In this document: piece by piece, positions 1,664 to 61,626 of the stretch | How positions within the stretch are numbered: position 1 is the first letter of the stretch | How the letters are laid out: every line of letters starts with the position of its first letter | Source: a virus | Lineage: Duplodnaviria; Heunggongvirae; Uroviricota; Caudoviricetes | Length of the DNA: 64,000 nt | Direction: 5' to 3' (one strand) | Virus record (IMG/VR): IMGVR_UViG_3300018493_000089 | Coordinates: 1 to 64,000 of that record | Notes under the pieces: generated by a model | Told to the model about the DNA's origin: nothing | The model's database searches: none | What the model saw: the letters and a program-made list of their open reading frames with translations, nothing else | Made by a program: the position numbers and the translations under genes

Positions 1664-2364
1664 TGGTGAATAAATACGTGATCACAGATGGTATTAGATA
1701 TATTGCAAAAAATAAAGCTGGTTCCTATGTTCCTGAACATGATGCAAGCAAAGCTTTAATTCTTTCTAAAGGTGATGCAGAAAAGATTTATTATAATAAT
1801 TTAGCAAAACCCCTGAGAAAAGTTTTTAGATTGTCAAAAGACGCAGTTCCAACAATAAAATCTTCAGAAAGTACAAAAATTGAAGATACAGCGATTGAAG
1901 ACAAAAAGGTTATCGAATGTAAGCCAGATATAAAAACAACAGATGCAATCATTAAGCAGGATGCGAGTAAAAAAGAAATAAAATACACCAAGCATTATGA
2001 TACAAAATGCGGGCTTGATGATGAATTAACAACACAGATTGTTCAGGTAGTAGAGATATTTAAGAGTGCTGCAACAAAAAAAGCTGATCTACAATCAAAA
2101 TTAGATAAAGTAGAAAAAGAAATTGTTGATATCAACCATTACATTGAATTCAAATCTTTGAATGCATGTGATGGATATAATGCCTACAGAATGTTGCGGG
2201 ACAGATTAACAAAACGAAGAAAATTAAAAAATGAATTAAAGGTTGCAGAAATTCTTGCAAAAGGAATTTTCACAACTTCCGATATTACAGATATTGAGAA
2301 AGTTATTAGTTCTTTCGATAAAAATCAATATCGTCCTAGAGTTCTCAGTGATTTATTTGAATAA
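1663..2364 (+). CDS. hypothetical Lys-rich protein
   Basis: ORF of 233 aa. RBS AGGAGG precedes an ATG that overlaps the upstream stop (TAATGG). Confidence 0.5.
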   Translation: MVNKYVITDGIRYIAKNKAGSYVPEHDASKALILSKGDAEKIYYNNLAKPLRKVFRLSKDAVPTIKSSESTKIEDTAIEDKKVIECKPDIKTTDAIIKQDASKKEIKYTKHYDTKCGLDDELTTQIVQVVEIFKSAATKKADLQSKLDKVEKEIVDINHYIEFKSLNACDGYNAYRMLRDRLTKRRKLKNELKVAEILAKGIFTTSDITDIEKVISSFDKNQYRPRVLSDLFE

Positions 2365-2375
2365 GGAGGATTATC

Positions 2376-2930
2376 ATGAGGGAAGTTTATAAAGTTAAAA
2401 AAGGTGACATTGTTCGACTGGTAAAAGCAAATACATTTGATTATGTGGAACATCCTTATATTGCACATTTTATCAATAAAAATTTTGAAGTCGTTGATGT
2501 AAATAAATATAGAATTACTGTGCTAAGAGATAACACAAAAATCGAATGTTATGCCGAATATTTTTATGATTATTTTAAAGTAGTAAAACCTGCAAAAGTA
2601 AAAGAAGAAACCGAAACAAATAAAAAGCAAACCAAAGTATCCAACGAGAAACCCGTTGAAAAGAAAACAGAAAATAAAAAATGGACTGATTGGACAACAA
2701 TTAAAATTTTCGGTGAGGATTATGCATATAAAACTGATGGTAAAACAGTTATTCTGCGTAATGGTGGTTGTAAGGGTGTAAGCAAATGCCATGATGAGGA
2801 TGAATTTAATTTAACAAAAGGTCTTGAAATTGCATTTAATAGGCTGGTAGCTATGAGAACAGAAAAAGCCATTAATGATGCAAGGGCGGATCTTGATAAA
2901 AAAGTAAAAGTAAAGAAGAGAACTGTATGA
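2376..2930 (+). CDS. hypothetical protein
   Basis: ORF of 184 aa with RBS AAGGAGG upstream. Confidence 0.5.
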   Translation: MREVYKVKKGDIVRLVKANTFDYVEHPYIAHFINKNFEVVDVNKYRITVLRDNTKIECYAEYFYDYFKVVKPAKVKEETETNKKQTKVSNEKPVEKKTENKKWTDWTTIKIFGEDYAYKTDGKTVILRNGGCKGVSKCHDEDEFNLTKGLEIAFNRLVAMRTEKAINDARADLDKKVKVKKRTV

Positions 2931-3184
2931 GAAAAAACTTTACATGCTTAAATTGTTTTTCAGAATTTGATGATTGGGCGGAAGTCGTCGAGTCTCATGG
3001 CTTCGATACTCCGCCATATGAAACACAATAGGTTTGCCCATAGTGTCACGATAATAATATTGTTACAGCTGTATATTGTGATTTATGCTTACAGCCTATT
3101 CATGGCAAATACATTGTCACAGTTGATGGTGATACAATTTGTGACAACTGTTTTGTAAAAAGGGATGTGGAAGATCTAATATGA
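2927..3184 (+). CDS. small zinc-ribbon protein (four Cys pairs) with 2 in-frame TAG codons
   Basis: ATG overlaps the upstream TGA. Cys pairs are CLNC, CP*C, CDLC and CDNC. The frame stays open through two TAGs to a TGA that overlaps the next ATG (ATGA). Confidence 0.45.
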
Positions 3185-3756
3185 AAAATACATTGGTTGT
3201 AAATTTAGTTGGTGGACAAGGTTCTGGGAAATCTACAATGATGGCTCATTTATTTGCATAGTTAAAATGGAATAATATTGACTGTGAAATGTGCAGCGAA
3301 TTTGCAAAGGAGCTTGTTTGGGAAAATCGACAAGAAACATTTAAAGATGAGCTTTATATCTTTGCAAAACAGAATCATAGATTATTTAGATGTAACGGAA
3401 AAGTAGATGTAATTATCACCGATAGACCTTTAATCATGTCTATTGCGTATAACCGGTACTATGGAGACCAAACGGATTATTTTTGGAATGCAGCATACGA
3501 AAGTATTGTTTATGAAACATTTAACAAATAGAAAAACCTCAACATTTTTTTGAATAGAGTAAAACCTTTTAATCCAAATGGAAGAAACGAAAATGAAGAG
3601 GATGCTAAAAAATTTGATGAATATTTTAAAGCCTCTCTTGAAGACCTTCGGCTTCCGTACCATGAATTTGATGGTGATTCCAACAGCGTTGAGGAAATAG
3701 GCGAGATGATTATTGGGTTAATAAAGAGAGGTGAAACAAATGATTCAGAACATTAA
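3181..3756 (+). CDS. P-loop deoxynucleoside / nucleotide kinase-like protein (2 in-frame TAG)
   Basis: Walker A GGQGSGKST and a dNK-like DRPL segment. Two TAGs are bridged by continuous conserved sequence. Confidence 0.55.
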
Positions 3757-3883
3757 TTCATTAGAAAATAATGCTAAGTACATTTATATTGGCAACAATA
3801 AATTTGTGAAAATCTAGTTTGATCGACAAATGGCTGAAAAACTCGCAAATGGCATTAAGGAGATTAAAGTTAATGCCGGATAA
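3740..3883 (+). CDS. small hypothetical ORF (1 in-frame TAG), overlaps kinase 3' end
   Basis: ATG at 3740 and 47 codons, but no strong RBS. Confidence 0.2.
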
Positions 3884-3895
3884 GGGGTTGATTGA

Positions 3896-4372
3896 ATGAA
3901 TAAAAAAATTATTTATTGTTTTATAGCCTTTACATTTGTATTAACTTATACAGTATATGGTTGGTCTAAAAGCAATAAAGAAAACCTAGAAGAAATAGAT
4001 AGGTTAAGTGCTATGGTGGCGATTCAGCAAGAAAAAATTGATGAGTTGGAAAAAGAATTAAATATCACAACAGAAAAAAAGCCACAGAAAAAACATTTAG
4101 GTAAGTTTGAATTATCTTTTTATTCTAAGGAGCAGTTTCCAAATTCTCCGACTGCAACAGGTGTAATGCCAGTTGTTGGAAGAACAATTGCTGTTGATCC
4201 ATCTGTGATTCCATAGGGGACAGCAGTTGAAATTGATGGATTTGGTATTAGATATGCCGAAGATACTGGCGGGGCGATTAAAGGCAATAAAATTGATGTA
4301 TTTGTACAGACAACTGCAGAGGCTCGTCAGCTTGGCAGAAAATTTAATGTTGATGTATGGACAGTTGAATAA
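3896..4372 (+). CDS. 3D-domain (MltA/YocH-like) cell-wall-binding protein with N-terminal TM and coiled coil; 1 in-frame TAG
   Basis: RBS GGGG, TM helix IIYCFIAFTFVL, and the 3D motif AVDPSVIP*GTAVEIDGFG...EDTGGAIKGNKIDVF continuing after TAG at 4214. Confidence 0.6.
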
Positions 4373-5121: not shown

Positions 5122-5639
5122 AAAAATCATTAATTTTACTTGTCGGAAAATCTGGTTCCGGTAAAACGACAATCGCAGAATAGCTTGAAAAGAATTATGG
5201 ACTAACAATGCTTGAATCATATACAACAAGGCAACCCAGGTACGAGGGTGAAAGAGGACATATTTTTGTTACAAAAGAGGAATTTGAAAAAATGCCTAAC
5301 AAAGTGGCGCACACATTTTTTGATGGAAATGATTATTGGGCAACACAAGAACAATGTGATGAATCAGATGTCTATGTGATCGATCCTGATGGCATCAAAA
5401 CATTTAAAAGAATTTATAATAGCCCAAGACCATACAAAATTGTTTATTTAAAAATAAGTCCGATTGTTAGATTTTGGCGAATGACAAAACGTGGTGATGG
5501 CGTAATGAAATCAATTAGACGTATTATGCATGACCATAAGAAATTTGGAAAATTTGAAAATGAGTTTGGCGTAAAAATTATTAAAAGAGACCCTGTTTGG
5601 AGCATTGCCAAACAAATTCATGAAATGAGGTCATTATGA
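5118..5639 (+). CDS. guanylate kinase-like nucleoside monophosphate kinase (1 in-frame TAG)
   Basis: P-loop GKSGSGKTT and guanylate-kinase motif SYTTRQPRYEGERGHIFVTKEEF. TAG at 5181. Confidence 0.6.
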
Positions 5640-6091
5640 TGAAATATTCTACAGTTGTGTAGATTTCACATCCATATGGCGGATTAAAGGAAAACGAGGA
5701 TATTGTGGCTGAGTTAATTATTGAACTCAGTCGCAAATTCCCGGAGTATTTATTTATCTCGCCAATCCACGCTTTTTCTTTCACATACAAAACAGAAAAG
5801 AAATATCAAGACGGTCTTGATAAATGTTTATGGTTGTTAGATCAGTGTGATGAAATGTGGGTTTTTGGCAAATATAGAGAAAGCATTGGATGTATGGCTG
5901 AAATCGAATATTGTAATGAGCATCATATTTATTATCAAGCAATCAATGACAATTGTTTAAAAATCATGGCAGAACCAAGAAAGTGCTGTGATTGTGGATT
6001 GATGGAAATAGATGAGCAATATGCAATTTGCAATAAAAGTTTTGTAAGTCAGATTTATGAAAAGGTTTGTGGTAAACATGGACAAGAATAA
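5636..6091 (+). CDS. nucleoside 2-deoxyribosyltransferase-fold (DUF4406-like) protein (1 in-frame TAG)
   Basis: SHPYGG...FISPIHAF...CDEMWVFG pattern typical of the NDT-like fold. The frame is open across the TAG at 5660. Confidence 0.45.
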
Positions 6092-6228
6092 AAAATTATT
6101 GCTTGAGTTGATTTGTGATAGACAGATTGCATTATTATTACAAGACAGTACAAATTATGAATCTGCAAAATATAAGCAATTAGAGAAACTGAAAGTATAT
6201 GTCAAAGATATTAAGGAGGGTGTTGCTA

Positions 6229-8469
6229 TTGAAGGTAATTAAAAGAAACGGTACAGAAATGTAGTTTGATTCAAATAAGATTAAAATAGCGATTTTAAAA
6301 GCATTTGTTGATGTAGATGGTGAAGAAAGCCAGTATGCAAAAGACAAGGCGAGAGATATTGCTAATTATATCGCATCTTTAAATAAAACAATGTCTGTAG
6401 AAGAAATCCAAAATATCGTTGAAGAAAAACTGATGGCTAGCAATAGAAAAGATGTAGCCAGAGCATATGTTCGATACAGATAGATGAGAGATATGGCAAG
6501 ATCCCAGTACGATGGTTTTATGCAAGCCATTAGGGAAAAGGTTGAAGCTTCAAATGTTCAAAATCAAAACGCCAATGTAGATGAACATTCTTTTGGTGGC
6601 AGAACCGGCGAGGCAACAGACACAATGATGAAAAAGTATGCTCTTGACTATTGTGTGTCAAAAATGGCTAGAGACAACCATCTGAATAATATTATTTACA
6701 TTCATGATCTGAATTCTTATGCCGTAGGCATGCATAACTGCCTGTCAGTACCTTTAGATGATTTGCTGAAAAATGGGTTTAACACAAGACAGACTGATGT
6801 ACGTCCTGCAAATTCTGTTAATACAGCATTTCAGCTTGTAGCAGTGTTATTCCAGTTGCAATCACTAATGCAGTTTGGCGGCGTGTCCGCTACCCATATT
6901 GACCATACAATGGTTCCTTATGTGAGAAAGAGTTTTTATAAACATCTAATGGATGGTTTTAAGTATATTGAGGGCGTAGCAGAGCCTAGAAAATATATGT
7001 ATCAAGAAAACGCTGATGAATTTTGGACTCAATACACTGATATTGATGACAAGGATTTAAAAGCAGCGCATCCTAAAGCATACCAATACGCAATGGATAT
7101 GACGACAAAAGAGACATATCAGGCAGTTGAAGGTATGTAGCATAACCTCAATACACTGCAGAGTAGATCTGGTAATCAGCTTCCATTTAGTTCTGTGAAT
7201 TACGGCACGTGTACTCTACCAGAAGGCAGAATGGTAACAAAAGCGTTGTTAGAAGTATCAATCAATGGTATCGGCAAACTACATAGAACGTCTGTGTTCC
7301 CTTGTGGTATTTTCCAGTGTATGAAAGGCGTAAATAGAAAACCTGGCGATCCTAACTACGATTTGTTCCAATTGGCATTAAAATCTACAGCACAGAGACT
7401 GTATCCCAATTATGCCAATGTGGATTGGAGTAATAACGCAGGATACGATATTAATGACCCTAGAACATATTTTAGTACAATGGGTTGTCGTACAGCCAAC
7501 CTGTTCGACATTAATGGCTTAGGTCAGCTTAAAGATGGTAGAGGCAACATCTGTCCTGTAACAATCATTATGCCTACATTGGCTATGATGGCAAAAGAAC
7601 TGTACGAAGACCAGACTTACGATACACATGCTAATATTGTAGATATTTTCTTATACATTCTCGACCAAAAAATTCATGAGGCAAAAGATATGCTTATTGA
7701 ACGATTTGAGTGGATTTGTAAACAGAATCCAAAATCTGCAAAATTCATGTATGAAAATAATCTAATGGCTGGTTATGTTCCAGAAGAAGGAATTAGAAGC
7801 GCTTTAAAACATGGCACCCTAGCTTTAGGTCAGTTAGGTCTTGCGGAAACACTGCAGATTCTAATTGGTTGTGACCATACAACAAAAGAAGGTATGGATT
7901 TGGCAAAACAGATTGAGCAGTTATTCAAAGATAGATGTGCTGAGTTCAAACAAGAATATCAACTGAATTTTGGTGTTTATTATTCTCCAGCAGAAAATCT
8001 TTGTCATACAGCAATGAGAAAATTCCAAGAACAATATGGCGTGATTGAAAAAGTATCTGATAAAGATTATTTTACAAACTCTATGCATATTCCTGTATGG
8101 CATAAAATGACACCATTTGAAAAGATTGATTTAGAAGCGCAGTTAACAGGATACTCTAGTGCTGGATGTATTACATATGTAGAACTTGAATCTTCAGTAA
8201 AACATAACATCGAGGCACTTGAAACACTTGTTAATTATGCAATGGATCAGGATATTCCTTATTTTGCAATTAATGTTCCCAATGATACATGTTTAGATTG
8301 TGGTTATTGCGATGAAATTAATGATGTTTGCCCCATGTGCGGAAGCAAAAGAATTCAGCGTTTACGTAGAGTAACTGGTTATTTAACAAATGATTACAAA
8401 ACAGCATTTAATTATGGCAAACAACAAGAAGTTGAAATGAGAGAAAAGCATAGTGGGGTATCCGTATGA
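6229..8469 (+). CDS. nrdD: anaerobic ribonucleoside-triphosphate reductase NrdD with N-terminal ATP-cone (3 in-frame TAG; TTG start)
   Basis: SD AGGAGGG sits 8 nt before TTG. ATP-cone VIKRNGTEM*FDSNKI and NrdD motifs NTLQSRSGNQLPFSS, GIGKLHRTSVFPCGIF. The C-terminal Zn and glycyl-radical region reads CLDCGYC...CPMCGS...RVTGYL. TAGs lie at 6262, 6481 and 7138. Confidence 0.85.
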
Positions 8470-21380: not shown

Positions 21381-22028
21381 TTAAAACTCCTCTTTAATCC
21401 TTACAATATCGTCTAGTTCAATTGTAGAACTTTCAATAATGACTAAATCTGTAATGGCTTTTACTTGATGAATTGTGCCAGCCGGAATTCTGATAGTGTC
21501 ACCAATATTTATACGAAACTCTTTTCCGTCTACTTTGGCAATCCCAACACCTTCAACAACATGCCATGTCTCATGTTTTTTAACATGATATTGTAGAGAT
21601 ATATTTAATCCTGCATCAATATGCAATCTTTTCATTGCATAGTTTTTAGTGATGTCCAGTAAATACTCTTTACCCCAACGCTTGTTGATTACAGTTAAAC
21701 TTTCGGCATCATCTTTAGATATCAAATAATTTGCATTACAACCCTTATCATCTATGTAAACATCTGCAGCGGGTTTGCCAAATCTCAGTTCATGCTATTT
21801 TACACCCCAATCAGATAATTGTTGCGTTGTAAGATCGAACCAATCAATTCCAGTTTCTGTGCCACGAGCAGTATAATAAACCACTTTATTTCCGTTATCA
21901 TACAAAGTGTTTGCCATTTGTATCATATCCATATATGGTTTTGCGTCCGCATAATTTTCTTCTTGACTACAGATAGTTCCATCAATATCAAAAATGTACT
22001 TTAGAGGTTTCGTATTTGAATTTTGCAT
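21381..22028 (-). CDS. HAD-family phosphatase fused to a cupin domain (join crosses in-frame TAG at 21795)
   Basis: HAD motif I FDIDGT...TARG and motif KPAADVYIDDKG lie on opposite sides of the TAG. A cupin region WGKEYLL...HVKKHETWHVVEG follows. Confidence 0.45.
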
Positions 22029-28077: not shown

Positions 28078-29415
28078 TTATTCGTACACCAGATGGATAC
28101 AACCGTTGGCAAGGGCAGAGCCTGCACCGATATCTGTTGTGCCTTTGGTGATGTTGTGTTCACCGTAGATGTTGTAACTTTTTGCACTTCCATCAATAAC
28201 ATCATATAAAAACATAGAATTTTCTAACTAACCAGAAGCGTGATTGGTCAGAACCAAAGAACGTCTGTTATTATTATCGAATTTTACATCATATGCAACG
28301 GCATAAGTCTGTCCATTGTAACTACCGAACAAACCTAAACCATCAGATACAAATAAATCCCCGCCTCTCAGCGTTCCGCCTTCGGTTGTAAAGATTTCTT
28401 TCCAACCTGTCCATGTAATATTACCATTTGCTGTGTAGTGTTCAGCGAACCATCTTCTGCTAGTGTTTGCCGCTTCTAATGTTAAAGATGTTCTGCTATC
28501 CATAGACTTATAAATAATACAAGTTGCTGTTGTTGTGGGATATTGACTCGCATTATTGGAAGATGTAACATGAAACATTAACATTGAATTGTTCGGTAAA
28601 GACGCCATAATACCATCAATTGTTTCTTCACCTACAGTAATACCAATCTGCTCAAGGGATGTGTATGTTTTTAAATTTGAATCCATCACTCTATCTAATG
28701 GCAAACTATCTTTTCTAATACTGCGACCAGACATATACTCTTCTGTTTCATTAGTTTCAATTTGTTTAAACACTTCCATTGTAATTGTTGTTCCAATAGA
28801 AACACCTTCAGTTAAAACAACTTTCATACCAGAAACCACAAAGTCAGAATTTTTATGTAATACCAGTTGACCTTGATATACTTTTAATACATCAATTGCA
28901 TCATCAAATGTATCAAAGGGAACAATAAATTCTCTTTGTCCATCTTCTACTGCAACTAAAGTATCAATCATATATACCATTTTGCCATTAATGGGAATTT
29001 TATTAATTTCATTATCAACATACTCTTTGGTAGTTACAGTTTCTGCTAATCTATCTAATGGCATTGTGCCAACGCCAATATTAACACCAGATAATGCTGA
29101 TTCTTCATCTGCACTAACTACGGCTTTAAACACAATGATATCAATTGTTCTGCCCGCAGGAACACCTTCAAGCAAAATAACTTTTGTACCATCGATAATC
29201 TAATCATCTACAGCAGATAATTTCATACGACCTGAAAAAACCATAACTGTGTCTTTTGAGTAGTCAAATGTCTGCATTGGAATTATAAATTCTGTTTGAC
29301 CATTGAATTCTGCGGTGTGTCGAAAATCGTATTTTACTAAGTTACCACTGGTAGCAAGAATTTGTTTTTTAATTTTTTGAATCTCAACGAGATTCTTAAA
29401 AGCATCAATACTCAC
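28078..29415 (-). CDS. tail/baseplate protein with three internal ~45-aa repeats (2 in-frame TAG; GTG start)
   Basis: Repeats GQTEF..SGRMKLSAVDD*IIDGTKVILLEGV and GQREF..HKNSDFVVSGMKVVLTEGV align with TAG opposite Phe. TAG at 29200 and at 28228; TAA at 28078. Confidence 0.45.
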
Positions 29416-29447
29416 ATTAACTTACCTCCTTTATAAATAAAAAAGAC

Positions 29448-30659
29448 TCAAATAATCATTTCTGAGCCATACTCAAAGTTTTGGTTATTAAAACGTGTTT
29501 CAGTATCTTTTCTCTTGTATAAAACATAAATACCACTTTCATCATATACAGTAAACTCAGATGTGATCACGCCATTAATGTGAGAATTGTCAGTTAAAAC
29601 ATATTTAGCAACTACAATAGATTCATCGGAGGCTAAATGTGCTTGCAAAGTATATACAGGTTCAATATCAGTAAATACAACAACCACATCTTCTCTTTCA
29701 AAATAATGTTGATAAATCCATTGTTGAACACTCTTGCCAGTAGCATCTTTTACATAAGCAGCTCTTGTTTCTGGGTACATGGGAGTGTATTCGCCATCAC
29801 TGTTTTTTGTTTTCATTAAAATTCTACCATCTTCTTGTAGGTGTAACCATAAGCCGCCTTCTTCTAAGTTTGACATAGGGTTTTCGCCATAAGAAACTTG
29901 TAGTAAAATTTTCATTTTAACCCAATATGTAGATCCATCAATAGGGCGAGTATTAATATTGGGCTGCAAACAATACCACATAAAACCATCACAGGAAACC
30001 ATATGATATTGTTCGTATTCAATATTATTTACCCATTCACCTCTAGGGGATAAGCCTAAACCAGTGTCACCAGTATCACCTTTGTCACCTTTATCGCCTT
30101 TTAATGCGGCAAGCTGTTCAGGTGTAAAGTCTTCATATCTAAAAGGTTCACCTTTATCGCCTTTATCACCTTTGTCACCTTTATCGCCTTTCATGGAGAT
30201 TTGAAGATATTTGTCTGGTGTTTCAATAGGTGTTTCTCCGGCAACAATACCATCACCATATACTAAAAAGTATTGTCTGATTCCATCTACAGGATATCTC
30301 ACAACATCAAATTTATTTAATAAATCATCACCATTAGCAGTAGAGGACATTGTAGGAGTCCAGTCGCCTTTCAGATTACCAATTCTGAAAATTTTGTCTT
30401 GGATATTATCATAAAAATATCTTTCTACAGCTACGATTGAGTGATACATTGTCATTAGTTTATCTGCATTAATAATGCATTCCATTAAACTGGGGTTTGC
30501 ATTTAGCAGTTCAATTGCTGAAGCTGTTTGCCCACCAGCAATTAATGAATTATACTGAGCAATCAGATTTACTTCAGATGCAGAGGGATCTCTCCAAGCA
30601 ACATTTTTACTGACTTGCTCTGGAAATTGCGTATGCGTTAAATCAGGATAAGTTACGCT
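29448..30659 (-). CDS. collagen-like tail fibre protein (TTG start)
   Basis: Gly-X-Y tracts KGDKGDKGDKGDKGEP and KGDKGDKGDTGDTG. Confidence 0.55.
   Translation of the reverse strand, partial: SVTYPDLTHTQFPEQVSKNVAWRDPSASEVNLIAQYNSLIAGGQTASAIELLNANPSLMECIINADKLMTMYHSIVAVERYFYDNIQDKIFRIGNLKGDWTPTMSSTANGDDLLNKFDVVRYPVDGIRQYFLVYGDGIVAGETPIETPDKYLQISMKGDKGDKGDKGDKGEPFRYEDFTPEQLAALKGDKGDKGDTGDTGLGLSPRGEWVNNIEYEQYHMVSCDGFMWYCLQPNINTRPIDGSTYWVKMKILLQVSYGENPMSNLEEGGLWLHLQEDGRILMKTKNSDGEYTPMYPETRAAYVKDATGKSVQQWIYQHYFEREDVVVVFTDIEPVYTLQAHLASDESIVVAKYVLTDNSHINGVITSEFTVYDESGIYVLYKRKDTETRFNNQNFEYGSEMII
30065..30195. repeat. 9-bp tandem repeats (tttatcgcc / tttgtcacc) encoding collagen-like GDK triplets
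   Basis: Direct repeats visible in the sequence. Confidence 0.5.
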
Positions 30660-30680
30660 CAATTCCGTCAACTCCTTTAT

Positions 30681-30711
30681 ATAAAAATACCCAGCAGTTT
30701 TTTCTGCTGGG
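30681..30711 (-). terminator. terminator (CCCAGCAG-aaaaaa-CTGCTGGG + T-run)
   Basis: 8-bp perfect stem. Confidence 0.55.
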
Positions 30712-30722
30712 ATGTATTAATA

Positions 30723-33700
30723 TTAAATAGTCGCAAATTTACCAGTGCCATTATTATAATAATATCGTTGTTCAACACGATCATATAAACAAGCAATACC
30801 ACGATAATCAATCATTGGTAAATAATCTCTAATTAAAATGTCATTATCATATATTTTACAAGAATATAGTCTGCCAACAAATCCATGACCATCACCACCA
30901 TCAGGTTGATTGTCTCTAAACAATCGTAATTCACATGTTGCATCAAATGGGATGTATTGATGTTCTCCGATAACAATATTGTCAAAACTAATTTGATTTT
31001 TATTAGCATCCACAATATGCCGCCCAATCATATTATATTGGAATGTGATATCTGATTGTTCGCCATAAGATGATAGCATTGAATGTGGTGCTATATTTAC
31101 ATTTTGAGAATATATACAGAACGCTTGTCTGCATTCATTATTTCGTGATGAAAATAATGTATAATAGCCAATAGCGTCTTGTTGTAAAATTTCATAGTTA
31201 AATACAACTCGAGTATTTTCGTCTGGTACAAATCCAGTATTGATATATTGATTACCATCACACGTTAAATAATTTACTGGAATCGAATCAGATTGGTTTG
31301 AATAAAAACTTCCTGTGCCTTGATTATAATAATACTGTTTTGTTACACAATCATATAAACAAACAATTCCATTTCCATCTTGAGCAGGAATATAATCTCT
31401 TACAAGGGTACTATTATGGTCATAAATTGCCATATTGTATAATTTTGCTGGTAAAAACTCACCAGCACGACCATTATTATTTAGTGCAAAAATATAAAGT
31501 GGATTTGCAGTTCTTACGCCAGTATCATTAGTGCCAGTTTGACCAGAACATATTATATTATTATTGATAATTAATGTAATATTATTTGCAAATGTTTGTA
31601 GTGCAATACAATATTTCGTATCAATAGTTTCGCCATTAGATGGTATATTTAAATATCCGCCATCGCCAAGTCCAAATTGATATAAATAGTTATACTGATT
31701 GTATTGATAAGGAAATCCCCAAAAGAACTGTTGTCCAAATTGCTCTGCATCTCTTGCACCAACAATCATACCTTGATATAGGCTAGGGTATTCAATATTT
31801 AACCTTGCCATATACCCATTTGGAACGGAAAGGTTAGTATTAATATATTGTGTTCCAGTTGAACCAATATATTTTAATGATTGCATACCAATTGGCGCTG
31901 CAACAAACTTTCCAAATCCTTGGTTATAGTAATATTTTTGTTCAACACGGTCATACACACAAGCAACATCATTTTCATCTAATGCTGGAATGAAATCACG
32001 AATTAAGACATTTTTATTATATAGTTTACAACCAAAAAATCTGATTTTTGAAAACTCGTTAACAGAACCATTATCATTGTCTGCAAAAATAACAATATTG
32101 TGTGGGCAAGTAAATTGAGTTGCTGTGCTGGTAAAAGCAACAGTATCATTAAAATACACATTATTGTTATCTAAATTTAATGCAACATTATATCGTGTAT
32201 TAACACCTGTATAACATGCTGCAGCTGTAGGTTCTAGTTTGTTTGAACCACGGCAACAATAATATTTGCCATCATTACTAAATCCGACATACAATGCATT
32301 TTCATTATGTACAACTCTAGAACCAAGAACCATATTATATTTGCTAATACATTCAATTGGTGTGAAATCAATGTTGTATGTAATATTTTCACTTGGTTTA
32401 ACGCCAGTATCAATCTATTGTTGACCAGTTGATTCGATAAATGCAATTTGTCTGACTTTTGCATCTTGGTATACAAATTGTCCGTTGCCTTTATTATAAT
32501 GAAATTTTCTATTTACCTTGTCATATAAACATGGAATATTATTTATATCTAACACTGGAATAAAATCACGAACTAAAATATCATTATCATAAATTTGACA
32601 ACCAAATAATCTCATAGTAGAGAACAAACTAGCAGTACCATTCAAAACTTCTGCAAATAAAATTAGTGGTGCTACGCCATCAAATGTAACATATTCATGT
32701 GTAATTTTCTTATCGTTGAATAAAACTACATTTTTGTTGTGGTCTACAATATGTCGATTATGTGGAACAGTATCAATAAAAATACCGGTATCATTATAAA
32801 AATTACTACGAAATTGACCATTTGGATTTCTCCATAAGGCGAACTCATTTGTATGTGGAGATGAAGTACGAGATGAATAAACAGCACCCCAAGAACTAGG
32901 ATCAACCGTATATTGAAAATCTATTACAACTCTTGTATTAGAATTTGGAGTATACTCTGTATCAATATATTGACTGCCAGTAGACTCGATAAATGGTATC
33001 TCTTCATAAATACCAATAATTTCATTTGTACTTAAACTATAATAAGGATAAAATTCTTCCATAGTAACATTCATTGTGCCATTTGGATGATCAGAAGAAA
33101 TATTTTTAATAATCCAATCTTTAATTTCGCCAGATTCACTATATTTAAATCTCACTTTTTCATTTCCTTGTAACCAAGGGATATACACCATATCTAAAGT
33201 AACTGTACAACCAATACGAGATGATAAATATGTTTCATGTTCAGCTCTTGCGACACAATCATCTACAGCTTGAATATCATCGTACTCTCCGCCCTGAAAT
33301 GATTTTAATCGTTCTCCAATTTTTTCAATCGCAAAAGGGGAATCTGGTGCTATTGTATATGAAATATGATCACAATGATGTTTTTTCACATCTGCTTTTT
33401 TTTCGTCAAGAGTAGGTTTTGTATTTCTTAATTTATTAACAGCCTGAATTTGCCATTGTCCTAAAGCATACATAGAATTTCTTCTGTATCTGAAAACAAA
33501 AGTAGAATTTGCAACAAAGAAATTTGCTTCAATTGCTTCTTCTAGGCTATTTGTAATATTATATAAACCAACCAACACTTCTTCAGATGATTCGTCTTTT
33601 TTATTCTAAATCGCAATTTTTGATCCAGCGTTTGAATTAATGAATGGCATTTTAACTGCAAATTTTGTGCTTGTAGGTAAACTACCATCATCATTTAAAG

Positions 33701-34562
33701 CGAGTCCTTTGAAATGTGCGGAGTATGTGTTTAAAGTAACATCATACTCACAAATTTCTGTATGATAATCTGTATCTAAGCATTTACCCCAAACCTTACT
33801 TACATTTCTAATGTCTTTCAAAACGCCATTATCAACTTCAGAAACATATAAATTTTGCAAAATATTGTTGTCTAAAACAATAGGATCGGACTCTTCCATA
33901 GGAATTTGTTTACAAATAAATGTACCATCGGTATCAAAATACATTTCATAAGAAGGGTAAAGGTCTCTGAGTTTTGTTAAAATTGTCCACACAGTATCTG
34001 TCGCACTAAATTCTAAATCATAAGGAACAAGTTGTGGCATGTCTGCAATATTATATCTCGTAAAAGGAGAGAAGGTTGTTAATACATAAATCATTGCATC
34101 ACGTACACTAACATTTTCCTCAGCCTTAATTACAACCTCTAAATCTTCTAAACTGCCATCAACATCACCATTTAATTTACAGACCAAATCAGAGCAATTT
34201 ACTTGTAGAATTCTTGTTTGTGGATTATAAGAATAATCTGTCATAACAAAAATACCTTTGTCATACCATAAAACATCCTCGTGAAAAGGTACTTGTACAC
34301 CAAAGAAAATTTTTACATATTGATCAATCCAAAGCAATCTGTCTTCTGAAATGCCAACATTTTTATTGATAACACCTAATGTCATACTCAATGTATTTCT
34401 AATATCAGAATCAACATTAGTTGAAATACTTCCAGATATATATTCATGCTTCATCTCATAAATTGTTTGAAATTTATCATTCAATAATAAAATCTTTACA
34501 TGCAATATTTTTTGCGGAAATTTTAAAGCATCAATATCAATTTGGGTAGGGTAATAAGCCAT
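30723..34562 (-). CDS. large (~1279 aa) tail fibre / receptor-binding protein made of three track ORFs joined by 2 in-frame TAG; four ~45-aa repeats
   Basis: TAGs at 33606-33608 and 32415-32417 are in frame and stop-free. Repeats STGSQYIDT / STGTQYINT / DGNQYINT versus STGQQ*IDT, and four copies of FGC.IYDNDILVRDFIP.LD....CLYD.V...YYYN.G.G.F. Confidence 0.5.
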
Positions 34563-35458
34563 TAATTACCCACCTCCAAAAATTCAACAAATCCATTATA
34601 ATATAGATCTTCATTACTATTTACATCGCCAACTTCAACGAAATTTACTGTTGTATGCACTAAGTCGGGATGACCATTTGTTGCTTCATTAATAGTATCA
34701 ATTGCAGATGCTAGATAGATTCGACCATCATAGAATTTAACAATTTTAGTTCTTTGATTGTCAATGAAATCTCTAAACGCTTTTCTATATCTCCATCCAT
34801 TATCGACATCCCATTGACATGTATTTCTATTTAATTCAATCATAGCACCAGTCACAGAGAATTTATCATATCTTGACTGACCATAATAATAAACATAAGG
34901 GTATTTAGAATTCACTGGTTCAATCATTGTAGATTTAATTTGTCTAGTCAGATTATCACTAGCGAAATCCAAAATTACTTGATATGTATTTGTTTTATCT
35001 ACAATAAAGCAACCATCAAATTCTACATCAACACTAATTGTTTGATAAGAACCTTCAACGCCATTAACAATAGGGACAGCAGCATACTCATATGTTGTAT
35101 TTGATGCTACAACCACATCATTAAAGAAGAAATCAAAGTCAGCTTCTGTTTTTACAGGGAATGTGTAAAGAGTAGACCATTTATAATCATCAACTTTTCT
35201 CTTTTTAATTACCATGTCACTAATAGAAGCGAGTGTAAAACCAACATTACCAGCTAAAATATTGTTTTGGAATTTCGCATTCATTAATGTTGTATGACCC
35301 CATGTTGGAATATTTGTGTCTGCCGGAGCAGAAACATCTGAATCCATCTACACTTCATCAAACACGGCATTAGTAATTTCTACATATTCCGTAGATTGTG
35401 GGGAAATAGGTGTTGCGTCTAAAGATGAGGCATAACTAACAAATCCTCCTAAAAACAT
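34562..35458 (-). CDS. tail/baseplate protein (1 in-frame TAG at 35348)
   Basis: ATG at 35458 overlaps the upstream TGA. A 36-codon open frame precedes the track's Met. Confidence 0.45.
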
Positions 35459-51555: not shown

Positions 51556-52116
51556 TCATTTACGCACCGTATTATTATAAACTCTACCTTTGTTCATTAA
51601 ATCGGTTTTGATAATTGAATTAGGTGACTGAATTTCATATTTTAATGTTCTGCAAGAATAATATGTATCAGTAACTGATTCTTTGTCCTATATTAATTTC
51701 GCCTGTTTTCCAAATATATGCGACCAATTAAAAATATCTTTCACTAAGTAGGCTAATAAATCATGTCTTGCAATACCATATTTTGTATTGATATTTTGTG
51801 ATTCGCAGAAAATCACAAAAGTAATGTTTGCTATTTTCATAGCATTGTTATGATAAGAATCCTCAACCAAATCAACTTGAAAACAAATATAATTTTTAAC
51901 TTGATATTGAATATCTGGAATTCTTACAAACGGTAAAATACTTACTCCAATATATTCTTCTGGAGCATCCTCATCCAAATCAGGTGTTTCTAAAACATGG
52001 ATGATTTCTGGAGAATTGTATAGCTCTTCTTTAATGATTTCTTTAATGCGAATATTTTCGTCATTCACATTCTCACGTAAAGCAAACAATTTTGCTTCTT
52101 GCTCTTTAGTCATCAT
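51556..52116 (-). CDS. hypothetical neck/tail-completion protein (terminal TAG at 51688 read through to TGA 51556)
   Basis: 44-codon stop-free extension after the TAG. Confidence 0.35.
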
Positions 52117-53216
52117 AAGCTAACCACCTCCAATTTGAATTTTTCGCATAATGAAGATCCATTAGCGTCAACAATATATATTTCTAAAACCTTTCCGACA
52201 AAATCATAACTTTCAGTTTTTATCGAAATTTTTGTTGGTTCTAAAAATTCAATATTAAAATCATTTGAAACATCTACACCGTCACACTCTATAATCCAAT
52301 CAAACTGATCAATTACATCATCAACAAATTCTACATAAAGTTTTTTTGCAACATTAGGGACTTTTATTGATGGAACTGTGCCAATCATTTTTAAGCTGGC
52401 TGTAAAAGAGGGTGGCGCTATATCAGGTTCTTCTAAGGGAATAGCACTTTTATAATAATCGGCATACATTTCCCCAGTTTCTATATTAACGTAATCTTTT
52501 TGCTCGTTGAATTTATCTTGAGCTATCGTTAATTTATTAATCCCGAAAGGATGAATATTTTCAACTTTCGAAATTTTCCATGTAATAGGTTTCTCAATCA
52601 AAGCTGAAACAATAATTCTATCTCCATAATAAAGCTTAGAACTAATATCATTCATTGGTAGCCAAATTTGATCTTGGTTTTCAACAATTGTTGTTAAATA
52701 GTCTGTCCACAAACCACTATTGTAAGAGTTTCGCATACGGGCTATTCCCCACATAGAATATTTAATACCATCTAAAATCCATTTGAATTCATAATTGCAT
52801 GGCAATACACTGTGTTTAACAAATTGTTGTTCTCTATCAGAAGAGCAAATCATCCATTTATGATAAATACCTTGTGCATCCGGAATATCAATATATAAAC
52901 CGATAGGATAATCAGCATTGTATAATTTATTATATTCTTCATAATAGTCTAGAGGGCATTCACTCATTGGTCTGAACATAATATGATACTCAACTTGGTC
53001 TTTGCTTAATGAACCATATTGGGTAACAATAAATTTAGCATCAATAGGTGTTTTTTCTCCATCTTTATCATGATAATAATCATAAATATAACATTTTTTA
53101 CTCTGAATATCTCTGTCCCAGGTAGCATTCATAATCATATCTGCATTCCGTTTTTGGATTTGTCCAATCTGTTCACTTTGATTTGACAACATATTTTTAT
53201 ATTTCAAAAAATTCAT
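52113..53216 (-). CDS. hypothetical structural protein
   Basis: ORF of 367 aa. TAATG overlap. Confidence 0.45.
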   Translation of the reverse strand: MNFLKYKNMLSNQSEQIGQIQKRNADMIMNATWDRDIQSKKCYIYDYYHDKDGEKTPIDAKFIVTQYGSLSKDQVEYHIMFRPMSECPLDYYEEYNKLYNADYPIGLYIDIPDAQGIYHKWMICSSDREQQFVKHSVLPCNYEFKWILDGIKYSMWGIARMRNSYNSGLWTDYLTTIVENQDQIWLPMNDISSKLYYGDRIIVSALIEKPITWKISKVENIHPFGINKLTIAQDKFNEQKDYVNIETGEMYADYYKSAIPLEEPDIAPPSFTASLKMIGTVPSIKVPNVAKKLYVEFVDDVIDQFDWIIECDGVDVSNDFNIEFLEPTKISIKTESYDFVGKVLEIYIVDANGSSLCEKFKLEVVSL

Positions 53217-53530
53217 TAATCTCCCTCCTTGATTTTGTCAATCAGGGAATGAGAATCTAAAATTAATTTTCTATATTTTTTAAAATCACAATCTTTTTTA
53301 TTGGCTTCTTTTCGTGCTGTTTCTAATAAACTAATTAAAGTTACTAATTCTGGAGGATTGAATAATATATCATTCATCCCAGAAATTCTCCATAACAATG
53401 TCTCAAAATAATAATCTAATTGTGGATAATTTTCTTCTTTATATATTAATAACCAATGGATAGAATTGTGTAATGAGCGTTTTTGCTCTTTGATTTGATC
53501 ACTATTAAAAGTGCCATATAAATGTTCCAT
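53216..53530 (-). CDS. hypothetical protein
   Basis: ORF of 104 aa. Confidence 0.45.
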   Translation of the reverse strand: MEHLYGTFNSDQIKEQKRSLHNSIHWLLIYKEENYPQLDYYFETLLWRISGMNDILFNPPELVTLISLLETARKEANKKDCDFKKYRKLILDSHSLIDKIKEGD

Positions 53531-53994
53531 TATTCTTCACCATTAATCTAAGAATTAGCAATATATCCACGATCACGAATCATTTTTCTGAGCTCGACCT
53601 TGCAGTCTTTTAGTAAACTTTTAAGTTCGCTAAGATGCGCTGCCTGAGAATAAAATTTTTCTTCTTTACCACCGAACATTTGTAGCGTATGTAATACTGA
53701 TTTTACTTGTGGTTCTAACCACTGAATAACCATTCCGATGGCTAAAATGTTTGTAACATAATCAATATCACCATTTTTAAAAATTTCATTTTTTAGTTCG
53801 TATGTTAAAGTCAAAATTTCATCATCAAATGTTATTGAAGAAAAAATTTTAGAAATATAAGGTACTGCAACAGCAGAATGTAAATAGCCTTTCATCATTT
53901 CGTAAGCATCATTAGGATTCAATGATGCAAAGTTGTAATCTGTGATTTTAAGTAAAAATTTTGAGTAGATGTCATCATATAGAACGCTGTTCAC
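53530..53994 (-). CDS. hypothetical head-tail connector protein (GTG start; terminal TAG then TAA giving TAATG overlap)
   Basis: SD GGCGGTGA sits 7 nt before GTG. After the TAG at 53548, 5 codons run to TAA, which overlaps the next ATG. Confidence 0.4.
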
Positions 53995-54644: not shown

Positions 54645-54663
54645 ATTGTATTTATAAATCAAA

Positions 54664-55740
54664 TTAAGCTTCGATTTCCCATGTACCGAATTTCTTGCCG
54701 ATAACTGTAGCTACACCCAGTTTCTGCTGATATTCAGCTTCAATAGACATATCTCTATTTGTATCTTTATCAGTTACTTCACTCATCTGAGCATCGCCTT
54801 CATCGTACAGTTTGATGAATTTGTTATCGCCAACGGGCATAATCAGCAGTTTGCTATTATCAACCAGTTTTGTTGTTGTGTCATGAGGAGCGAATGCTTG
54901 GGGAATTTCAACCAGTCTTGTGCCTTCGAAATAACCCAGTCTACCTGTTGTATATCTTTCTTGTTTCATTTCATTAGAAACCCAATCAACTTCAGACATA
55001 CCATTCAGTTTAGCCAGAGCAGATTTTGTACCCATGATAACAACTTCTTCACCTGTAGCTGTCTGAACATCTTCAATCAGTGTGATGAATGTGTCTCTCA
55101 TAGAAGAATTCAGCTGACCTGTTTTAGCAAACTGAGATGTAGGCATTACTTTATCGCCAGCAGACATAACTGCTGCATATACCATATCGTTTACTTTTTT
55201 GTCAAATCCTTCATAGATTTTCTGAACAAAACCAGCCCAGTCAATTCTGCCAGCCATGAACAGTTCGTATTCAGCATAGATTTTTACACCATACCAGCTT
55301 GTTTTAACATTGAATGTTTCGCCTTCAGCCAGTTTCTGTCTAATCAGGTTGTGATGATTACCAGACAGTTCGGATACAGTCAGGATACATTCATTAGGTG
55401 CATAGAATTCGTTTGTATCGCCAGCAGCCATAGATTTCATTTCTACGAATTCGTTGAAGAAAGGATTTTCACCCCAACCGGACACCAGCAGATCTGTTAC
55501 TGTTTCTTCGATTACTTCGTAAACTGCAACTTTATTTTTTCTAATTGCTTTTCTCAGTTCTTTTCTTGTGCAACCTTCATCAACACCTAGAACCTGGAAC
55601 ATTACTTCTCTAATTTTAGCGTTTGTATCTTCTTTAGATTTTTCATAAATGCCTTGAGCAGCATCAAACATCAGGTTTTTAAAACCATTCTATTCAAATG
55701 CAACAAATACGTTGTTTGTGCTATCGTTTGTGAATCTCAT
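54664..55740 (-). CDS. major capsid protein (1 in-frame TAG at 55690)
   Basis: SD AGGAGG sits 9 nt before ATG 55740. High-expression codon bias, and a terminator downstream. Confidence 0.6.
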
Positions 55741-55770
55741 TATAGTAGTCCTCCTTTCAGCAAGTAATTA

Positions 55771-56238
55771 TCAACCGATTGTCAGTTTTTTGTTAGCAAC
55801 AGAAACTTTAGCGCCTTTTGCAACTTCGCCAGAGATTGCTTCTGCAGAAACTTCGAATCTATCATATTTCAGCAGTTCCATACATCTCATAATGTCACCC
55901 TGTGCATTGTAGAAATTGGATTCATGCTGGCACTGTGTTGTGTATTCTTCATAAATCATAGGAACCTGTGCTACTAACCAGCAATTTTCAGCAGATGCTA
56001 CGTCAATCAGCCAGTTACCATTTGCTGTTTTATCAATAATTGTACCAGCGAATGTACCAGCAGCAGCTTCAGCCTATACATCAGGTCTCAGATATTCGCC
56101 ACAACCAACGATGCAACCGTTGTCGATGTCTGCTGTAGCTTCGATGTTGCGGATGTGAGAACCGCCAATTGTAGACAGCAGTTCGCTTGTACCAACAACA
56201 GCGTGTTTGTTTTTAAAGTTTAAAAAATTTGTTGCCAT
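55771..56238 (-). CDS. head decoration / scaffold-like protein (1 in-frame TAG at 56074)
   Basis: SD AAGGAGG sits 8 nt before ATG 56238. Codon bias matches the MCP. Confidence 0.4.
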
Positions 56239-59610: not shown

Positions 59611-61626
59611 TTATAGTCCAGAGAATAGAGAGCTGCGAGTCCCAGTTCTCATTGGTAATTTTTGTGCTAAACTAACATTTGGAGTTTCTTTTTTCTTATT
59701 TCTAATTTGGGAAACTCGTTTTTCACTCAAATACCAACCAAGCATTGCTAATGTGTAAGCACGGTCATCATGCAACGTGCCTTCACTAGCGCCGGTATCA
59801 GCATCTTTATGAGCAGGAAGTTTAAATGAGTCAGAGCCGCTATCACGTTTTACACGACAAATATTTACAATTTCTTCTTTCATCGCATCAATTTGTGATA
59901 AAGCAACTTCTTCATCAGGTGATAATTTATACATAATTGTTTGAGCTGTATCTAATTTGTCTAGCTCATCTGCTAGACGTTCTTCATATTCTTTTGTTGG
60001 AAGATCTAATTTATCTAATTCAGCTCTAATTCTTTTTTCGTTTTCTTTAATTGTTTTTGTGTCAATCTGTAGCATATTTAAATAACCACGATTATCATAC
60101 TTTTCTGGGAATGTAATATAATCTCCTTCGACCATTTTAATTAATGCCTCAAACATTTGAGATTTATATTTTGCTGGTTCGAGCATTTTAATTTTATCAA
60201 CAGCGTTGGGGAATTTTCTTATGTAGTCTTTAGAAAATTCTTTGTCAATAAATCCACGCTGTTTTTTCCCGGATTTATCCATCCAGTCCTCTAATAAAAA
60301 GTCTGGAATACTTTTACCGCCACCGCCGGCACCAGCATCAATCATAATACATTCAATATTACCATATAAATCGGCATCTCCATTGTAATCTAAAATCAAT
60401 TGTTTTAATTCGCTAATTTGTTGTGGAGTTGTTTTGGGTGTTTTTTTTCTAGTACTTAAATCCATAAAATTAACACAATTAACAATATCCATCATCCAAC
60501 CCTTCTCATCGTCATAGCGTAATTCACCAACGCTAACAACAGAATTGTCAGTAGATCTTGCAGGGTCATATGCTAATACAAAAGTTCTTTTTCCTGTATC
60601 ATTACTCATTACAGGAGGGCGAACATAAGAGTTTCGTGTAATTAATGCACGTTTAATAATTTGTCCGGAACCACCATCTTCCGTGAACACATTATAATAT
60701 TCTCTTAATGCCTTTTCTTGATTAACACGCATTTCTGCATCAACAGTTTCCTGACGCAGTAGTGAAGCGGGATAAATTTTTCCGCCTTTTGTGCCTCTAA
60801 TTACAACATCGCAGTTAATATCTGCAACAAAATAACGAGGATCGCCTAAAAGCATTTTCTTGGAAAAATCCCTATATTTAGAATAAAACGGTGTATCAAT
60901 AGAAGATGCAGATGAAATCTAGACAAGTTGATTTGGAATTTCTCTGGGTAGAGTTCTAATATCCATATCTCCACCCATTTTAAAATCTTTATTTACGATG
61001 GTAAATGCACCATATACATTCATCATTTCTTCCGACAAGAAGCCACATTCATCAAATACAACCATATTGCCACGAGCACCTCTTTTGCGGTCAATATTTG
61101 AATTCAATGTCTTAGTAAAAGAACCATTATAAAGACTGTAAAAATGCCCAGATGGATTATGGACAAATCCTTCACCCATGCCATTTCTAATCTCTAATTC
61201 TTGTTTAAATACACCGGTTAACCCAGTCATAGATTCAATATTTCTATTTGCAATATTTTCTAGTGTTTTAAAAGTTGTGATAGCCTGATCGCCAGAGCCA
61301 GAGGCAATATATGCCCAATAGTTATTAAATAGCATACCTTTTGCCATTAACATTAAGTCTGTAATTGAAGATTTACCAAAACCACGACTACACACCCATA
61401 AGGAGTAGGGGGTGTTCCAAGTTTTCATAATAGCATACGCCTGTGCATCAAGTAATTCTGCGCCGATTACATCTTTGATAAATTTAATCGGGTTTTTCTG
61501 ATACTAAGCACGAATTTCAGCAAGTTTTTGAAAACTCTCCAATTTTCTTGTGGACATAGAGTATTCAGTTGGTTTTACAAAAATCTCATAATTCTTGGGG
61601 ATAAATAATTTATTTTCATCATTCAT
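59611..61626 (-). CDS. terminase large subunit, 671 aa, assembled from two track ORFs plus an uncalled N-terminus via 2 in-frame TAG
   Basis: N-terminus MNDENKLFIPKNYEIF..., Walker A CSRGFGKSS, Walker B MVVFDECGF, and nuclease domain VLAYDPARSTDNSV. TAGs at 61504 and 60919 are in frame. Confidence 0.8.

Follow-up and report, generated by a model that had tools for sequence, protein, structure and literature searches.

The stretch of DNA analyzed here is 64,000 nt long and corresponds to positions 1-64,000 of the IMG/VR record IMGVR_UViG_3300018493_000089, a phage of the Caudoviricetes. It is called the window throughout, and coordinates without a prefix refer to it. The phage is SPbeta-like, has a genome of about 129 kb and was found in gut-type metagenomes. 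In this phage the amber triplet TAG very probably serves as a sense codon for tyrosine, as judged from protein alignments. Tyrosine rather than glutamine is indicated because relatives carry tyrosine exactly at the TAG sites in half of the window genes. A reassignment of TAG to tyrosine is, with high confidence, the best explanation for the observations taken as a whole.

Two arms were distinguished in the window on the basis of GC skew and open reading frame (ORF) structure, a + strand arm at 1-16 kb and a - strand arm at 16-64 kb. The + strand arm carries genes for the C-terminus of Pol III alpha, ThyX, a kinase, NrdD/NrdG, a ligase and related genes, and the - strand arm carries the terminase, head, tape-measure, tail and fibre genes. 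When TAG was read as sense, broken ORFs were fused and the window was found to possess 66 ORFs, 33 of which hold 47 in-frame TAGs. The terminase, capsid-module, tape-measure and NrdD genes are among the TAG-bearing ORFs, and the terminase, NrdD and capsid-module genes align in full length with their homologs across the TAGs once these are taken as sense. The 47 TAGs stand beside 804 TAT and 182 TAC, and TAG thus represents about 4.5% of the tyrosine-type codons in the window. TAA terminates 43 of the 66 ORFs. The window DNA was 99.98-100% identical in all six aligned independent contigs (11-129 kb), which were drawn from 20-odd JGI, ENA and Logan contigs with the same genes. Since the identical sequence occurs in independent contigs, the TAGs are not assembly errors. 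Within credible ORFs the TAGs are biased to the 5' end (16 of 45 lie in the first 14% of the ORF), and the base following TAG is A in 23 of 45 cases compared to 32% after TAT/TAC.

The initial annotation started from two neighbouring genes of the tail region, which are listed below with their TAGs.

30723-34562, - strand: tail/baseplate protein of 1279 amino acids (aa), called the fibre protein; phrog_1887 tail protein with PF16467 (DUF5048); in-frame TAGs at codons 319 and 716
32415-32417, - strand: fibre TAG codon 716, at the near-invariant tyrosine of the module motif [ST]TGxQ-Y-I[DN]T; DNA caa caa TAG att gat
33606-33608, - strand: fibre TAG codon 319, context KIAI-TAG-NKKD
28078-29277 (start possibly up to 29421), - strand: repeat-containing tail-region protein with two in-frame TAGs and an internal duplication
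29200-29202, - strand: repeat-protein TAG facing phenylalanine of the second copy, SAVDD-TAG-IIDGTKV versus HKNSD-F-VVSGMKV
28228-28230, - strand: second repeat-protein TAG, context NHASG-TAG-LENS

In the fibre protein, a tail-protein region at the N-terminus and a DUF5048 domain precede four paralogous C-terminal modules of about 175-215 aa each. The modules open with STGSQ-Y-IDT, STGQQ-TAG-IDT, STGTQ-Y-INT and DGNQ-Y-INT, so that tyrosine occupies the codon-716 column in all three paralogous modules. The four modules and the TAG at 32415-32417, which had been reported earlier with the TAG-bearing module listed last, were reproduced by translation in both coordinates and sequence. An alignment-based scan of IMG/VR with the three TAG-free modules revealed 151 related modules. 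Among the 18 that were aligned, the motif glutamine was invariant and the following residue was Y in 17 and W in one. Two search patterns were used for these modules, of which one contains Y and the second is independent of it. At least nine of the 18 modules deviate elsewhere from the Y-containing pattern and hence were obtained through the second, so the tyrosine count is not circular. A search for the module motif in the terminase-centred loci found none.

The same motif also offers a built-in contrast. In this phage the glutamine directly before the TAG at 32415-32417 is encoded by CAA. In two IMG/VR phages unrelated to it, L440 (188 kb) and L441 (178 kb), TAG stands instead at the invariant glutamine of the motif (GT-TAG-YID at L440:1013-1030 and GS-TAG-YIN, with the TAG at L441:1028-1030). 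Judged from this placement, L440 and L441 use the ordinary code 15, in which TAG is glutamine. The TAG falls on the motif glutamine there but on the motif tyrosine here, and one motif therefore displays both codes.

In the repeat-containing protein the duplication covers about 100 aa with 34% identity (E = 9e-19), and its first 79 or so aligned positions are free of gaps. The TAG at 29200 does face phenylalanine as had been annotated, while the gap-free repeat length of 41 aa given with it did not hold.

The large terminase gene provided the deepest alignment.

59611-61626, - strand: large terminase gene; TAG codons 41 (61504-61506) and 236 (60919-60921); TAG-site context NQLV-TAG-ISSASSIDTPFYSK

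Search of 5.8 billion proteins with the terminase retrieved 2696 homologs. Among the best 120 of these, which are 61-86% identical, tyrosine is found at the TAG columns in 112 of 118 (codon 41) and 119 of 120 (codon 236). The lone glutamine at both columns belongs to the Logan protein P0021. As its own DNA (L010:4607-6613) reads TAG there, this glutamine is a mistranslation under code 15 by the gene caller. In a set of 80 IMG/VR relatives with terminase identity of 50-79%, codon 41 faced Y 60, W 13 and F 10 times, and codon 236 faced Y 83 times and F once. Further sites in the window are the following.

53548-53550, - strand: TAG codon 117 of the head-module gene 53530-53898; Y in 38 of 38 IMG/VR relatives
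56074-56076, - strand: TAG codon 55 of gene 55771-56238; Y 34, F 16, others 4 in IMG/VR relatives; TAT/TAC or TAG in close relatives
55690-55692, - strand: TAG codon 17 of the YonB-like capsid gene 54664-55740; TAT three times, TTT once and TAG once in close relatives
51688-51690, - strand: TAG codon 154 of gene 51556-52149; TAT/TAC in all five covering loci (L010, L011, L076, L211/L212)
7138-7140, + strand: TAG codon 314 of NrdD (anaerobic ribonucleotide reductase, 6199-8469), EGM-TAG-HNLNTLQ; Y in 21 of 23 representatives at least 50% identical
6262-6264 and 6481-6483, + strand: other NrdD TAGs, in variable columns
4214-4216, + strand: TAG codon 107 of a 3D-domain protein (3896-4372), AVDPSVIP-TAG-GT; homologs Y 14, L 5, K 1
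21795-21797, - strand: TAG codon 78 of a HAD-like/cupin protein (21381-22028), GVK-TAG-HEL; tyrosine in both solved homologs, 9iqw and 1xpj

The initial annotation called for the alignment of TAG positions with homologs, and this showed tyrosine at every conserved-column site with glutamine essentially absent. Among the IMG/VR relatives glutamine stands opposite TAG in just 4 of about 480 aligned residues. Elsewhere in the genome, beyond the window, 13 further TAG sites with sense-codon data behave alike; in an 849-aa protein of that region, six of seven TAGs face tyrosine in 16-21 of 20-21 homologs. Some searches were less informative. For the three TAG columns of NrdD, the distant PDB homologs have G/T, N/T and I/E/E. 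A homolog search with seven small TAG-containing enzymes concatenated gave matches to the 3D-domain only, and PDB searches with ThyX, RusA and a 151-aa protein (5636-6091) gave no usable matches. A TAG of the deoxynucleoside kinase had been placed opposite tyrosine; this was not borne out, as the guanylate and adenylate kinases of PDB vary at the column and no tyrosine is present in the alignments shown.

To compare amino acids on a common scale, substitution profiles of all 20 were taken from the same alignments and the TAG columns were scored with site weighting. At identity of at least 65% (7 sites) the log-likelihood (lnL) was -1.6 for tyrosine, -20.8 for phenylalanine, -22.0 for tryptophan and -34.3 for glutamine. 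At identity of at least 30% (11 sites) it was -28.4 for tyrosine, -33.2 for histidine, which came next, and -37.9 for glutamine. Tyrosine ranked first by at least 19 natural-log units in the closer set, in agreement with the earlier proposal that amber is read as an aromatic residue, tyrosine rather than glutamine.

Close relatives were defined by terminase identity and include L010 (86%), L211 (82%), L076 (79%) and L011 (78%), with L211 and L212 representing one phage. The first IMG/VR relatives retrieved (L007-L009) had just one gene in common with the window, and single-protein scans of IMG/VR gave no relatives with a 1839-aa protein and one with the ligase. Nine window TAG sites are covered by the loci of the close relatives, and only TAG, TAT/TAC and, once, TTT occur there. 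When pooled with one locus for each close relative, the window TAG faces Y 21 times, TAG 14 times and F once, and never glutamine. The TAGs of the close relatives are themselves opposite window tyrosine in 17 of 20 cases, and a window glutamine lies opposite a stop in 0 of 562. As read from these codon alignments, reassignment of TAG to tyrosine is shown to be common to a small SPbeta-like clade with terminases 78-86% identical, in which TAG and TAT/TAC replace one another freely at corresponding codons. Besides this phage, the clade includes the 57.6-kb IMG/VR contig 3300045988_185107, Logan and ENA contigs of P0021 and P0026, and a contig from SRR33013277.

The decoder of TAG was sought among the tRNA genes. 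ARAGORN found no tRNA within the window. A genome walk by exact-protein look-ups reconstructed about 126 of about 129.2 kb (about 97.6%) of a circular or circularly permuted genome, the total length being taken from coordinates on ERZ27248436 k141_1105663 and from the 129.3-kb length of JGI contigs. A 3,158-bp stretch of the early arm lies outside the reconstruction; it corresponds to roughly positions 870-4030 of JGI contig Ga0216342_10007023 and to 32,169-35,325 of ERZ27248436 k141_1105663, and it is also contained in Ga0257077_10000703. Thirteen tRNAs were located.

2-8 kb right of the window, - strand: tRNA array in the order Leu(UAG), Gly, Ser(GCU), Ile(UAU), Tyr(GUA), Met, Trp, Met, Leu(UAA), Lys, Ser(UGA), Asn, Gln(UUG)

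The tRNA-Tyr(GUA) gene of the phage occupies L014:3463-3546, about 3.3 kb right of the window. The tRNA is of class II with A73 and an acceptor stem GGGTGAT; it has an atypical C8 and a 4-bp D stem and is missed by the Rfam tRNA model. In several of the phage tRNAs the first pair of the acceptor stem is mismatched. A scan for the anticodon arm of this tRNA-Tyr with CUA in place of GUA found GUA in 118 of 118 copies.

A tRNA with the CUA anticodon was found in the sister phage L076, which has nine TAGs, eight of them opposite window tyrosine. It is 87 nt long and of class II, with a long variable arm, G1-C72, A73 and an acceptor stem GGGTTAT, and it lies in the tRNA array directly after tRNA-Met, in the same arrangement as the tRNA-Tyr(GUA) of the window phage. 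No tRNA-Tyr(GUA) is present within 10 kb of it. Rfam places it weakly in the tRNA clan (32.7 bits). Serine identity is excluded by A73; the exclusion of leucine comes from the protein alignments and not from the tRNA. In the relatives L211 and L011 neither a Tyr nor a CUA tRNA was found within 10 kb of the arrays. The initial annotation expected a suppressor with anticodon CUA, whose long variable arm would indicate tRNA-Tyr. Such a tRNA, with A73, exists in L076, but in the reconstructed genome of the phage itself only tRNA-Tyr(GUA) was met.

On this basis the decoder would be an amber suppressor that arose from a class II tRNA-Tyr by a G34 to C change, as in E. coli supF, and it would be charged by the TyrRS of the host. 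Such a supF-like mechanism is exemplified in the clade by L076 only and is extended from there to the window phage. The chances that a dedicated tRNA-Tyr(CUA) reads TAG in this phage, by analogy with its sister, are put at roughly even. Its CUA tRNA could lie in the remaining 3.2 kb, could have been merged by assemblers with a near-identical gene in tandem, or could be provided by other means.

The identity between the anticodon arm of the L076 tRNA and the tRNA-Tyr arm of a relative was considered as a sign of tyrosine origin and dropped, as the same 17-nt arm occurs in 52 IMG/VR contigs with very different tRNA bodies. The CUA anticodon arms GCGGTCTCTAAAACCGT and GCAGACTCTAAATCTG are found in 52 and 80 IMG/VR viral contigs (L159-L210 and L331-L410), again with very different bodies. 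Forms of about 90 nt with a Gln-like D arm and an insert of about 17 nt in the variable arm occur among them, along with class II forms with G73 (Ser-like, L159 and L193). Phage amber suppressors may thus have several amino-acid identities. A distant contig carrying a Ro60 gene has a 97-nt tRNA-like gene with CUA (L050:4301-4397), in which the variable arm is very long and the acceptor stem poor.

Several points weigh against tyrosine as the meaning of TAG. Distant homologs show other residues at variable columns, namely NrdD codons 22 and 95, codon 21 of g50804 and codon 24 of g56281. TAG is one mutation away from TAT/TAC, so tyrosine in the close relatives could be due in part to ancestry; against this objection, CAG lies just as near to TAG and yet is never seen opposite it in those relatives. 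Some N-terminal TAGs may precede the true start codon, a possible example being codon 10 of gene 51556-52149, at which TAG is kept in five of five close-relative loci. In the reconstructed part of the genome no tRNA with a CUA anticodon was detected by ARAGORN (default, intron and relaxed modes) or Rfam, and all 13 tRNAs read sense codons. The tyrosine identity proposed for the L076 tRNA is drawn from its class II shape, A73 and the protein alignments. Similarity does not separate Tyr, Leu and Ser here, the mean identities to these tRNAs (0.62, 0.59 and 0.58) being non-discriminating.

Other meanings of TAG were weighed on the same data. Glutamine, as in the code 15 of crAss-like and Lak phages, is the published norm for TAG, the Logan gene calls translate this lineage in that way (P0021), and the phage encodes a tRNA-Gln(UUG). 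Against it, glutamine was opposite TAG in 0 of 22 sense residues of the close relatives and rare in the distant ones, its lnL is about 33 units worse than that of tyrosine, and it would displace a near-invariant tyrosine in the terminase, NrdD and the fibre motif, where the invariant glutamine already precedes the TAG. No Gln-type CUA tRNA is present in the 126 kb, and the single CUA tRNA of the clade is of class II with A73. Code 15 is hence extremely improbable in this phage. The suggestion that the TAGs are genuine stops, with the genes split, degraded or made by low-level readthrough, is just as improbable. The standard-code gene callers of JGI and ENA do split these genes, but the frames run on past every TAG with homology on both sides in the essential terminase, capsid, tape-measure and NrdD genes, TAG positions are kept or swapped with TAT/TAC among relatives, and the identical sequence recurs in 20-odd assemblies from different samples. 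In the early arm, moreover, hardly any ORF ends in TAG (2 of 82). Phenylalanine, tryptophan, histidine or an ambiguous residue is very unlikely. In the repeat protein, and once among the close relatives, a TAG lies opposite phenylalanine, and tryptophan or phenylalanine appears in some distant homologs; these two are, however, the usual substitutes of tyrosine (window tyrosine itself faces F in 6.3% of cases), and their profiles are about 19-20 natural-log units worse.

A different kind of alternative keeps tyrosine as the meaning of TAG and dispenses with a CUA tRNA of the phage. The aberrant tRNA-Tyr(GUA) would misread UAG at the third position with release factor 1 (RF1) held back, or a host suppressor or another route would serve. 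In favour of it, 97.6% of the genome is free of a CUA tRNA, the tRNA-Tyr(GUA) fills the slot held by tRNA(CUA) in L076, and L211 and L011 likewise lack a CUA tRNA near their arrays. The many RNA- and translation-related genes of the phage (ArfA-like, PTH2, RtcB, Thg1-like, Ro60/Y RNA) are in line with it, as is the presence of suppressor tRNAs in just 35-40% of recoded phages (Borges et al.). The 3.2 kb still unseen may hold a CUA tRNA, though, and a tandem GUA/CUA pair differing by one base would collapse in short-read assembly. No Tgt or other anticodon-modifying gene is among the Pfam hits listed for the genome. Efficient reading of a G-ending codon by G34 would be needed for about 45 window TAGs in essential genes, for which we know of no bacterial precedent. 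Decoding without a phage CUA tRNA is therefore considered unlikely. If true, it would be a recoding mechanism undescribed in phages or bacteria.

Returning to tyrosine as the meaning of TAG, its distribution over the genome is uneven. The early + strand arm, which extends over about 50 kb beyond the window with 82 ORFs, uses TAA 52, TGA 28 and TAG 2 times as stop and has almost no credible in-frame TAG; it is shown to avoid TAG both as sense and as stop. TAG is present at the distal end of the + strand arm (window 2.9-12.5 kb, nucleotide-metabolism genes) and along the whole - strand arm, with its highest density at 72-77 kb, immediately upstream of the tRNA array. Early genes without TAG would permit a switch from the standard to the altered code during infection, and the distribution matches the temporal code-switch proposed for other recoded phages.

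A number of RNA-related genes were found beyond the window. A Ro60/TROVE-like gene lies inside the tRNA array, and two YrlA-like Y RNA candidates adjoin it. Its homologs number 3778 proteins (E <= 1e-30), the best 120 being 65-94% identical and many of them residing on phage-sized contigs of 50-220 kb. A JGI metagenome scan with this gene gave distant relatives only, and the window phage was not among them.

L013:615-2246, 4-6 kb right of the window: Ro60/TROVE-like gene
L013:2516-2620 and L013:2664-2790: YrlA-like Y RNA candidates (RF02553, 30-34 bits; gathering score 69)
L072:5132-6809, L073:15693-16721, L073:18053-18922 and L013:4771-4905: RNA/translation gene set of unusual composition, with genes for PTH2 peptidyl-tRNA hydrolase, RtcB ligase, RlaP nucleotidyltransferase, a Thg1-like protein, a beta-CASP RNase and a 44-aa ArfA-like ORF

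Precomputed Pfam hits in the phage and its relatives revealed SPbeta structural-module families in synteny (YonJ, YonG, terminase, YonD, YonB, YomW, YomV and YomU). The terminase is only about 22% identical to those of named SPbeta-like phages and 22-26% to GenBank relatives, and no near relative was found in the GenBank phage collection. Shine-Dalgarno-like motifs precede 39 of the 66 window genes, and the structural module resembles that of Bacillota phages. L155 (CAYNMA010000001.1, 122 kb), with a terminase 50% identical, sits in a metagenome-assembled genome labelled 'uncultured Bacteroides sp.', a host label which conflicts with the Bacillota-like structural module. An open frame of 369 codons at 54658-55767 (+ strand), interrupted by one TAG, is antisense to the whole capsid gene 54664-55740 (- strand) and is probably a by-product of codon bias.

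Two known systems resemble the one proposed here. The amber suppressor supF of E. coli is tyrT, a class II tRNA-Tyr with CUA and A73, which inserts tyrosine at UAG; it is a laboratory or spontaneous suppressor which gives partial readthrough of real stops. The tRNA(CUA) of L076 has a supF-like anatomy, whereas the own copy of the window phage reads GUA, and UAG would be a regular sense codon of the virus here, unlike in the supF setting. NCBI code 29, the nuclear code of the eukaryote Mesodinium, reads both TAA and TAG as tyrosine. TAG is tyrosine there and very probably here, while TAA is the main terminator in this phage, in the window as well as in the early arm.

For phages whose code differs from that of the host, Borges et al. 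'only observe' TAG to Gln and TGA to Trp. Surveys and proteomics report the same two changes for recoded phages, pipelines re-predict genes with TAG as glutamine by default, and Mgcod models solely a change of TAA to tyrosine, the hypothetical code 101. Among 180 phage tRNA-Sup(CUA) genes, Kienbeck et al. 2024 (Nat Commun 15:1559, PMC10879173) predicted 1.1% to be of the Tyr isotype, and they referred to 'code 29'. Theirs is purely a prediction of tRNA isotype, which they themselves describe as still to be validated, and it names no lineage and gives no protein-level evidence of the kind presented here. Our full-text literature search, in which subscription journals were mostly uncovered so that an earlier mention is possible (e.g. 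Ivanova et al. 2014), found no TAG-to-tyrosine phage lineage or protein-level evidence described. The phage shares many features with code-15 gut phages such as crAss-like, Lak and phAss-1 (PMC9523058, PMC10607447): in-frame TAGs found mainly in genes for structure and lysis and in part of the metabolism genes, TAG-free early genes, large tRNA arrays, presumed standard-code hosts and genes fragmented by standard callers. It differs from them in the amino acid, tyrosine rather than glutamine, and in its lineage, an SPbeta-like siphovirus family.

The finding would add TAG to tyrosine as a third phage reassignment, in a different phage family, beside code 15 (TAG to Gln) and code 4 (TGA to Trp). 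Public protein sets hold mistranslated proteins of this clade, as seen in the Logan terminase P0021 with glutamine at two near-invariant tyrosine positions, and structure prediction, homology clustering and metaproteomic searches would be slightly wrong for such phages. The missing suppressor makes it testable what decodes the recoded codon in phages without a suppressor tRNA. The choice of amino acid in stop-codon capture by phages would not be limited to the 'intrinsically susceptible' aminoacyl-tRNA synthetases (GlnRS and TrpRS). The clade may further serve as a natural system in which a one-base anticodon change (GUA to CUA) in a phage tRNA seeds a change of code, since sister genomes appear to hold both states.

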